In this document: positions 17,304 to 19,274 of the stretch, one piece after another
How the letters are laid out: every line of letters starts with the position of its first letter
How positions within the stretch are numbered: position 1 is the stretch's first letter
Source: Vulcanimicrobiota bacterium
Lineage (GTDB): Bacteria > Vulcanimicrobiota > Vulcanimicrobiia > Vulcanimicrobiales > Vulcanimicrobiaceae
NCBI GenBank assembly: GCA_003133025.1
Contig: PKZK01000066.1
Coordinates: forward strand, 2,183 to 22,103
Length of the DNA stretch: 19,921 bases
Direction of reading: 5' to 3'
Position numbers and translations under genes: made by a program
Notes under the pieces: model-generated
Told to the model about the DNA's origin: nothing
The model's input: the letters and a program-made list of their open reading frames with translations, nothing else
The model's database searches: none

Positions 17304-18518
17304 TTAGGTTGCGGGGTGGGCGCCCAGCGCCTCGTCGAGGTCGTCGATGAGGTCGCGTGCGTCTTCCAAGCCGACGGAAATGCGCAGCAGGTCGGGGGTG
17401 ATGCCCAATTGCTCCTTCCGCTCGGCCGGAACCGATTTGTGCGTCATCGCGGCCGGAGAACAGATCAGCGACTCGACGCCGCCGAGCGAGACCGCGAGGT
17501 TGAAGAGGCGCGTCGATCGGGCCACCGCGAGGGCCCGCTCGGCGCCGCCTCGCACGCGGAACGACACCACGCCCCCGAATCCGCGCTGCTGCTGCGAGGC
17601 CAGTTCGTGGTCGGGGTGCGAGCGCAAGCCCGGGAAGTAGACGCGCTCGATGTCCTCACGCCCTTCGAGCCATTGGGCGACAGAGAGCGCGTTGCGCTCG
17701 TGTTGACGCATTCTCACCGCAAGCGTCTTCGCGCCGCGCAGCGTGAGATAGGCGTCTTGCGGCCCGGGCACGGCGCCGACCGCGTTTTGGTGGAAGGCGA
17801 TCTCGGCGAAGAGATCGGCGTCGTTGACGACGACCGCACCGCCGACGACGTCGCTATGCCCGTTGATGTATTTGGTGGTCGAATGCACGACGAGGTCGGC
17901 CCCGAGCTCGAGCGGGTTCTGAAAGAACGGCGATAAGAACGTATTGTCGACGGCCAGGATCTGGCCGGGGCGCTTGAGGCCGGCGATGGCGCGGATGTTC
18001 GCGACGCGCAGCAGCGGATTGGTCGGTGTCTCGACCCAGATCAATTTGACGCCGTCCTCGAGCGCGGCCTCGACGGCACGCAGATCGGTCATGTCGACGA
18101 ACGTCGTCGCGATGCCGTTGCGCGCGAGCACGTCGCAGAAGAAGCGATACGTGCCGCCGTACAAGTCGTCGGTCGCAAGAACGCGATCCCCCGCGCGTAC
18201 GATGCTGCACGCCGCGGCGACCGCGGCCATGCCCGAGCCGAAGGCCGCCGCGAAACGTGCGTTTTCGAGGGCGGCGAGTTGCCGTTCGAGCGCGAGCCGA
18301 GTCGGATTGCCCGTGCGCGAGTAGTCGAAGCCCTTATCGCTGCCCACGGCATCGAGCGTGAACGTCGCGCTCTGGTAGATGGGCGGTATCGTCGCGCCGG
18401 TTGCCGAGCAAGGGTCCTGGCCTGCGCGGATCGCACGCGTATCGAAACGATCCGAGATGCGCGAACGCGCGCTGCCGAGGTTGTGCGGGGCAGAGTGGCC
18501 GAGCGTGGTGGACGGCAT
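17304..18518 (-). CDS. Cystathionine gamma-synthase / gamma-lyase family PLP enzyme (Cys/Met transsulfuration)
   Basis: PPIYQSATF, YSRTGNPTR, FGSGMAA, LYGGT, ETPTNP, DNTF, PLP-lysine motif HSTTKYINGHSD and SLGGVESL. AAAGAGAG lies 8 nt before the ATG at 18518. Confidence 0.95.
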   Translation of the reverse strand: MPSTTLGHSAPHNLGSARSRISDRFDTRAIRAGQDPCSATGATIPPIYQSATFTLDAVGSDKGFDYSRTGNPTRLALERQLAALENARFAAAFGSGMAAVAAACSIVRAGDRVLATDDLYGGTYRFFCDVLARNGIATTFVDMTDLRAVEAALEDGVKLIWVETPTNPLLRVANIRAIAGLKRPGQILAVDNTFLSPFFQNPLELGADLVVHSTTKYINGHSDVVGGAVVVNDADLFAEIAFHQNAVGAVPGPQDAYLTLRGAKTLAVRMRQHERNALSVAQWLEGREDIERVYFPGLRSHPDHELASQQQRGFGGVVSFRVRGGAERALAVARSTRLFNLAVSLGGVESLICSPAAMTHKSVPAERKEQLGITPDLLRISVGLEDARDLIDDLDEALGAHPAT

Positions 18519-18558
18519 GAGTAACACTCTCTTTCAACGTGGTGGAAACGTTAGGGGG

Positions 18559-18591
18559 AAATGAAAAAGCCCTCGCTGCGGCGAGGGCTTT
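18559..18591 (-). terminator. Intrinsic terminator in the leader of the transsulfuration gene (attenuator 3:4 hairpin)
   Basis: Minus strand AAA-GCCCTCGC-CGCA-GCGAGGGC-TTTTTCATTT: an 8-bp GC-rich stem plus U-tract, about 40 nt before the gene start. Confidence 0.85.
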
Positions 18592-18617
18592 GACGTAAGC
18601 GACCGGCGCGAGCCGGG

Positions 18618-18698
18618 CTATCTCACATGCAAAAGCACCAGGCCGCGCGGCGCGCAACCCGTCATTCGCATGGACATCGCAAATTGCGATCGAATCAT
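18618..18698 (-). CDS. Putative leaderless Met-rich leader peptide MIRSQFAMSMRMTGCAPRGLVLLHVR (26 aa)
   Basis: ATG lies 7 nt downstream of the -10 box, with no SD. Met codons at 8, 10 and 12 and Cys at 15. Stop TAG is 26 nt before the terminator hairpin. Confidence 0.7.
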   Translation of the reverse strand: MIRSQFAMSMRMTGCAPRGLVLLHVR

Positions 18699-18705
18699 GC
18701 TGCCG

Positions 18706-18734
18706 ACCTTAGCATGGCCCGGGGACACTGTCAA
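18706..18734 (-). promoter_or_regulatory. Sigma70-type promoter
   Basis: Perfect -35 TTGACA (18734-18729), 17-nt spacer, extended -10 TGc-TAAGGT (18711-18706). Confidence 0.8.
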
Positions 18735-19069
18735 CGCTTCTCGTCCGTTGCCTTGAGCAGTGCGAGCAGGTCTCCCACGAAGGCGCCCTGTTCGTTGGGG
18801 TGCCGGAGGCGCGCCGAGTCGATGATCACGTAGTGGTTGCGCCGGCCCTCGCGCTCCCGCTCGATCACGCCTTCTTCCTCGAGGTCGGTCAGGATCTGCT
18901 GCACGGCCCGCTCGGTGATCTTGACGGCGGCCGCCAGATCGCGCACGCGCAAATCCGGATTGCGGGCAAGAGCGATCAGCACGTGGGCGTGATTGGTCAG
19001 GAACGTCCAATTCGTTCGATGCGGATGCGCGGACTCGGCTTCGGGAAGCAAAGGAGGGGCAACCTTCAT
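18731..19069 (-). CDS. Winged helix-turn-helix transcriptional regulator (MarR/AsnC-like HTH); alternative start at 19099
   Basis: WTFLTNHAHVLIALARNPDLRVRDLAAAVKITERAVQQILTDLEEEGVIEREREGRRNHY...LRHP. AGGAAG/GGAG lies upstream of the ATG at 19069. Confidence 0.9.
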   Translation of the reverse strand: MKVAPPLLPEAESAHPHRTNWTFLTNHAHVLIALARNPDLRVRDLAAAVKITERAVQQILTDLEEEGVIEREREGRRNHYVIIDSARLRHPNEQGAFVGDLLALLKATDEKR

Positions 19070-19201
19070 ATCTCCGGCTTCCTGAATGGGCAGGCTCATC
19101 CCCCTGTATCCGGCCCGTCCCGACCCTCGTCCTGGGGCAGGTCGGGGAGCGACGCCGTGGAACCCCGCAAGGCTGCCGGATCGACTCCGGCGCGCGCCCA
19201 C

Positions 19202-19274
19202 GCCGACGTAGCTCAGTTGGTAGAGCAGCTGATTCGTAATCAGCAGGTCAGCGGTTCAAGTCCGCTCGTCGGCT
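19202..19274 (+). tRNA. tRNA-Thr(CGT); CCA not encoded
   Basis: Acceptor stem GCCGACG/CGTCGGC, D-arm GCTCAGTTGGTAGAGC, anticodon arm GCTGA-TTCGTAA-TCAGC (CGT at 19235-19237), T-arm AGCGG-TTCAAGT-CCGCT. Confidence 0.97.

Follow-up and report, generated by a model that had tools for sequence, protein, structure and literature searches.

A conserved methionine-codon leader, probably a ribosome-read transcription attenuator, upstream of a putative cystathionine beta-lyase gene in Vulcanimicrobiota

Methionine represents an awkward case for ribosome-read attenuation, as the same amino acid whose supply is to be sensed is also needed to start translation of the leader. The classical leader-peptide attenuators are trpL, hisL, leuL, thrL, pheL and the ilv leaders. 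A 19,921-nt stretch of contig PKZK01000066.1 from a Vulcanimicrobiota bacterium (hereafter, the window) carries on its minus strand a Met-rich leader element followed by a gene of sulfur amino acid metabolism, and thereby raises the question of whether elongator Met-tRNA can be sensed during ongoing initiation. With its complete set of terminator and antiterminator, the conserved family to which this leader belongs lends itself to a direct test of this question. The comparison of relatives, together with folding models, suggests that the leader is very probably a ribosome-read transcription attenuator sensing charged elongator Met-tRNA.

The element opens with a predicted sigma-70-type promoter (18706..18734, minus strand, as are the features that follow), composed of TTGACA at 18734-18729, a 17-nt spacer and TG-n-TAAGGT at 18714-18706, with a presumed start site downstream. 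It is followed by a leader ORF of 26 codons, MIRSQFAMSMRMTGCAPRGLVLLHVR (18618..18698; ATG at 18698, stop ending at 18618), by an intrinsic terminator with its U tract (18561..18591; hairpin 18591-18566 and then a T tail, with the RNAfold helix at 18588-18569) and by the gene of a 404-aa Cys/Met-metabolism PLP enzyme of the transsulfuration family (17304..18518; ATG at 18518). This order of promoter, ORF, terminator and gene had been claimed in a preliminary description of the locus, and it is borne out by the sequence, by the terminator call and by the promoter spacing, TTGAC being found 35-40 nt 5' of the leader ATG in 28 of 29 homologous leaders, with the 29th at a contig edge. The window promoter is absent from the output of a consensus promoter scan and its -10 matches at 3 of 6 positions only; the promoter call is nevertheless upheld because its spacing to the leader ATG is conserved. 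This ATG lies just 7 nt past the -10, so translation from a leaderless mRNA is predicted.

The putative sensing codons Met8, Met10 and Met12 (segment 1; 18663..18677) occupy a cluster position shared by the 29 leaders, and Arg11 and Cys15 of the window leader lie within the antiterminating zone computed by folding, or on its border. The helices that had been folded by hand, that is 1:2, the cap hairpin, 2:3 and 3:4, are all reproduced by RNAfold. Specifically, with no ribosome present the predicted 1:2 helix (18626..18672) pairs 18672-18665 with 18633-18626 and encloses a hairpin of 10 bp at 18661-18639, while the predicted 2:3 antiterminator (18578..18646) pairs 18646-18622 with 18599-18578 around the cap hairpin 18616-18603. 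The inner hairpin, as well as 5 bp gained by the antiterminator (18646-18642/18582-18578), which reach the terminator arm and loop, come from RNAfold and extend the earlier drawing. Helix 1:2 forms in the window leader as drawn, but its register differs among homologues. On the upstream side, an ArsR-like HTH gene (18731-19201, minus strand) overlaps with its stop codon the -35 box of the leader promoter, and a tRNA-Thr(CGT) (19202-19274, plus strand) is divergent from it; this neighbourhood is not kept beside the relatives' leaders that were inspected.

Within the window genome this combination of features is rare. At least four Met are found in 312 of 13,156 short ATG ORFs, and a terminator-like hairpin lies behind 2 of these 312, only one of which, the window leader, has a promoter. 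When short ORFs of the same genome are anchored on a promoter, a terminator follows in 2 of 9, namely the window leader and an aromatic-rich leader.

Relatives carrying the leader belong to the Vulcanimicrobiota, including the Vulcanimicrobiaceae, and are uncultured soil bacteria. A total of 29 distinct leaders, all 5' of the same orthologue and from at least four subclades, was assembled from a Met-filtered search (24 leaders) and from a promoter-anchored search with no Met filter (5 leaders); duplicate loci were left out, as was L036, which barely differs from L033, and no claim rests alone on L002 (genome G008), included among the 29, or on L064 (G258), included among the leader-lacking rows. 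The unfiltered promoter-anchored search, in which a leader was found at 20 of 34 loci, is a non-circular check of Met richness, as all 20 have at least two internal Met. The ORF, its Met codons, the terminator and the antiterminator are kept in the 29 relatives' leaders, which agrees with the attenuator proposed in the preliminary description. Leader length ranges from 20 to 33 codons and the number of internal Met from 2 to 7; overall, Met accounts for 15.5% of internal codons, versus about 1% in the genome's long ORFs counted in all frames. Moreover, 110 of the 115 internal ATGs are in frame, and 92 of these 110 lie within codons 8-14. Met is the sole residue kept in 29 of 29 leaders, although its number and spacing vary, and in 23 of 29 the last clustered Met lies 13-16 codons ahead of the stop. 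The claim for a Met-rich peptide with a Cys holds, consequently, for the Met codons and not for the Cys, which occurs anywhere in 13 of 29 leaders and at varying positions; Cys co-sensing as a conserved feature was rejected on this ground. A close strain, represented by one contig, shows changes at leader codons 2 and 3, with none listed in the Met codons or helices. The contigs available from small shares of public RNA runs did not span leader and terminator.

In the tree of the orthologue group, 28 of 58 rows have the leader and 30 of 58 show none. At three loci (L009, L058 and L048) a promoter 65-106 nt before the gene is kept while leader and terminator are absent, which likely reflects loss of the attenuator. 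Three further loci, L117, L107 and L124, are labelled Babeliales, Janthinobacterium and Alphaproteobacteria, respectively; their genes resemble the Vulcanimicrobiota orthologues and may derive from mislabelled bins or from transfer.

The capacity of the leader RNA to switch between exclusive structures was evaluated with folding models in which the ribosome is represented by a mask over the RNA that reaches 13 nt beyond the A-site codon, applied codon by codon before folding; for a ribosome at the stop codon, this mask to some extent imposes terminator formation. The antiterminator is computed to be exclusive with the terminator and to use the 3' part of the ORF. When the ribosome occupies the last Met of the cluster, this 3' part holds the terminator 5' arm of the nascent RNA in 27 of 29 leaders, and the arm is released 2-5 codons further on in 26 of 29. 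If no ribosome is present, 28 of 29 complete leaders fold into the terminator. At equilibrium of the full transcript, terminator occupancy at the Met cluster is below 50% in 15 of 29 leaders and the terminator wins in 14 of 29; the latter would need kinetic trapping, a process beyond the reach of these models. The window leader shows 64% terminator at Met12, 46-49% at codons 13-14 and 100% again at Cys15, and read-through would therefore rely on kinetic trapping.

Segment 2 and the terminator 5' arm covary across the 29 leaders. For 28 of 29, the duplex between ORF and terminator arm is stronger than that of dinucleotide-shuffled sequences, at a mean z of -1.8; taken singly, 12 of 29 leaders have p<=0.05, and the window leader has p = 0.075. 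The raw test of cognate ranks is weak, as GC cores are shared, and a double-centred version was used instead: here, cognate segment 2/terminator-arm duplexes exceed the expected strength by 3.6 kcal/mol, a value reached by none of 10,000 permutations, although the result is inflated by the fact that kin are not independent. Terminator GC stems are present in 29 of 29 leaders, with a weak U tract in about 5.

The strongest argument for the Met codons as the sensor is that codons swap with the pathway on one scaffold. A covariance model built from 24 leaders and run on the genomes of the phylum matches 56 of 151 of them, with 48 of 71 among the other genomes of the family; 66 of the further matches were inspected and 62 downstream proteins annotated. 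Among these matches, leaders with Met or Met/Cys precede metY and homoserine dehydrogenase, and leaders with Cys or Cys/Met precede sulfite reductase, PAPS reductase, TauE and sulfonate-binding proteins (ssuA). In the same way, Thr runs are found 5' of hom, thrC and aspartokinase, Ile codons 5' of ilvA, Ile/Leu/Val codons 5' of ilvB, and aromatic codons 5' of aroA and pheA-aroF. Among the weak matches, a few lack a clear leader (L242, L243) or a gene (L222, L225). The window genome itself (G000) has two predicted leaderless attenuators of this kind, one rich in Trp/Tyr/Phe 5' of a DAHP-synthase-like gene (C81:5372, plus strand) and one rich in Ile/Leu/Val 5' of an ilvB-like gene (C103:15006, plus strand), both genes being named by likeness and not by HMM. 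Leader codons hint at the functions of downstream genes, as for the probable beta-lyase discussed below.

The family-wide set on the same scaffold (L206-L245 and L180-L205) spans Met, Cys, Thr, Ile, Ile/Leu/Val and aromatic leaders, and many of its met/cys members share a pyrimidine-rich motif just 5' of the ribosome-binding site. Three leaders with Tyr runs (L221, L232 and L233) lie 5' of a haem-oxygenase-like iron-redox protein, with a weak PF14518 match in 2 of 3, which suggests a tyrosine-linked function for that uncharacterised enzyme.

Rfam scans of the window leader, of 20 orthologue loci and of 16 sister loci returned no SAM riboswitch or T-box above threshold, in keeping with the preliminary description, which had read the region as an attenuator. 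None of the Rfam leader models passes on the window leader, Leu_leader reaching 25 of 50 bits through its terminator part. SAM-I, T-box, MetJ and MetE were not found in five genomes searched (80-97% complete), SAM riboswitch classes other than SAM-I being tested at the loci only; MetH is present in 5 of 5 of these genomes and MetX in 4 of 5. The leader thus shows a possible means of met-gene control in a phylum with no detectable SAM-I, T-box or MetJ in the five genomes searched.

Sensing of Met alone has to be weighed against other readings of the same leader. The attenuator might respond to Met together with Cys or Arg, or to slow translation in general, as would fit the Arg11 and Cys15 of the window leader, the mixture of Met with Cys in sister leaders 5' of metY and hom, and the frequency of Arg, which makes up 19% of codons and often adjoins Met. 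However, Arg is spread over all six synonymous codons, mostly within the GC-rich pairing segment, and the Cys present in 13 of 29 leaders contrasts with the Met kept in all, and we regard this reading as quite improbable. A switch driven by a ligand or a protein, similar to a SAM riboswitch or bound by a regulator, would instead make the ORF incidental and its AUGs structural. The leader does fold stably, and the accessible part of PMC3771891 describes met genes as commonly controlled by SAM riboswitches or T-boxes; nevertheless, the in-frame placement of the AUGs, the codons that change with the pathway on a common scaffold, the lack of an Rfam match and the lack of a conserved aptamer-like core (50% column identity) render such a switch very unlikely.

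A terminator that constitutively damps the gene, or that ends the upstream HTH gene, with the ORF present by chance, is hardly credible at all: 14 of 29 models favour the terminator at equilibrium and the HTH gene stops exactly at the -35, but promoter, ORF and terminator persist in relatives whose upstream genes are different, and neither in-frame clustering of Met nor a covarying antiterminator is in line with this reading. Finally, the peptide itself might sense a metabolite inside the ribosome. TnaC acts by nascent-peptide arrest, and plant CGS1 by an arrest induced by SAM. The conserved length of the leader and the conserved spacing from Met to stop could be viewed in this light; against it, no residue except Met is conserved, the number and spacing of Met vary, and the C-terminal residues follow the RNA pairing, so that arrest of this type has a very slim chance.

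The preferred reading, attenuation by a ribosome that reads Met codons, can be laid out as follows. Transcription would begin at the leader ATG or directly beside it, and the leaderless mRNA would then be engaged by an initiating ribosome. When Met is plentiful, the ribosome would pass codon ~15 and cover segment 2, allowing the terminator to form. When Met-tRNA is scarce, it would stall at Met8, Met10 or Met12, breaking 1:2 and leaving 18646-18622 free to capture the emerging terminator 5' arm and loop, with read-through by the polymerase. Since the models yield the terminator when no ribosome is present, initiator fMet-tRNA would have to stay charged while elongator Met-tRNA falls. Selective-charging theory permits elongator Met-tRNA to fall first; no bacterial measurement of selective Met-tRNA charging was found in the accessible literature. 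The induced enzyme, a paralogue of gamma-lyase minus the gamma-specifying glutamate, would then likely cleave cystathionine, providing homocysteine for MetH.

The identity of this enzyme deserves attention, as it had been called a cystathionine gamma-synthase/lyase. The assignment to the transsulfuration family stands, but the protein is probably, though by no means certainly, a cystathionine beta-lyase (MetC-like), a proposal drawn from one residue and from gene context, a gamma-synthase being the less likely identity. No curated HMM cut-off is reached by the window enzyme, including that of the beta-lyase model, the best score being 503 of 513 bits, and its best relatives of solved structure are gamma-lyases. 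Val343 of the window enzyme aligns with Glu333 of yeast cystathionine gamma-lyase, that is, the gamma-lyase glutamate is absent. According to the accessible part of PMC6073527, Glu333 of the yeast enzyme orients cystathionine for gamma-elimination and a hydrophobic replacement favours beta-elimination; function in this enzyme family is, however, hard to predict from sequence (PMC7483736, accessible part). The family holds two paralogues, each clade with 100% SH-aLRT in a quick protein tree that excludes proteins with a frameshift or truncation (L010, L119 and others below 330 aa). The window orthologue group has V, T, A or I at yeast position 333 throughout, plus an N-terminal extension, while the paralogue clade has Glu in 35 of 35 rows and no leader in 35 of 35, and sits behind cystathionine beta-synthase at the 2 loci checked. 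A beta-lyase that supplies MetH with homocysteine would agree with induction on Met shortage.

The window leader resembles the classical attenuators in its short ORF with cognate codons, its 1:2, 2:3 and 3:4 alternatives, its intrinsic terminator and a stall zone that ends just before segment 2; it differs from them in its Met codons, in being predicted leaderless and in its lineage, the Vulcanimicrobiota. The attenuation principle is known from trp, and Met leaders have previously been only proposed in the accessible literature. That no well-characterised Met equivalent is known, as stated in the preliminary description, stands for this literature, to be supplemented with two Met leaders already proposed in print (PMC4007540 and PMC8079986, as far as accessible). 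The former, Deinococcus deserti Deide_09379, was proposed in 2014 as a transcription-attenuation leader 5' of Met-tRNA ligase (metG) and is likewise a leaderless short ORF, with 15 codons, 4 Met and a mapped start site at the ATG; it belongs to another phylum, and the accessible part of the report gives neither a terminator/antiterminator nor conservation or a test (PMC4007540, Table S9). The latter, metL 5' of metNIQ in Streptomyces lividans, was proposed in 2021 as a methionine-dependent leaderless leader, but its 29 codons mix Thr, Cys and Met, a typical intrinsic terminator is missing according to its authors, and no test was found in the accessible part (PMC8079986). Mycobacterial polycysteine ORFs are also leaderless, sense a sulfur amino acid and were experimentally tested, but they employ Cys codons and act on a downstream ribosome-binding site instead of an intrinsic terminator (bioRxiv 10.1101/834739, accessible part). 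In the Met T-box of S. aureus, Met-tRNA charging similarly controls a terminator 5' of met genes; there, however, the RNA binds uncharged initiator tRNA directly and no ribosome or ORF is involved (PMC3771891, in its accessible part). As far as their accessible parts extend, PMC1262725 reports that no such attenuator structure was seen upstream of actinobacterial met operons and PMC2965389 names no Met attenuator. An experimentally tested Met attenuator was not found in the accessible literature, closed journals lying outside the search.

A second RNA element covers the start of the gene. It consists of a bulged stem that spans both the ribosome-binding site and the start codon (18492..18530, minus strand), with an outer helix 18530-18525/18497-18492, an inner helix 18516-18513/18501-18498 and a conserved bulge of 8 nt. 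The 37-nt motif, extending over the ribosome-binding site and the first 9 codons, is found in 51 of 51 aligned orthologues, with or without the leader; 90.8% of cells are paired, versus 33-51% when the pattern is slid, and 10 cells have compensatory double changes, several of them synonymous. The exact pattern occurs at the start of this gene in 34 of 34 matches among 185,579 species genomes (GTDB), and the element has no Rfam match. The alternative of a local hairpin across the ribosome-binding site was dropped, since several orthologues break it. The bulged stem would be a candidate translational switch or protein-binding site, damping or regulating translation. A bolder reading, tentative and rather doubtful, would place two layers of control on a paralogue of gamma-lyase that has been converted to a beta-lyase: a ribosome reading the Met codons would set its transcription, and the stem, as a new small riboswitch or autogenous operator responding to SAM, to homocysteine/cystathionine or to the enzyme, would set its translation, in a lineage that may base its control of amino-acid genes on a single leaderless attenuator scaffold, duplicated and fitted with different codons. 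At one locus, L010, the loop of this second element contains a single extra base that changes the reading frame downstream of the conserved ATG, leading to a 53-aa product.
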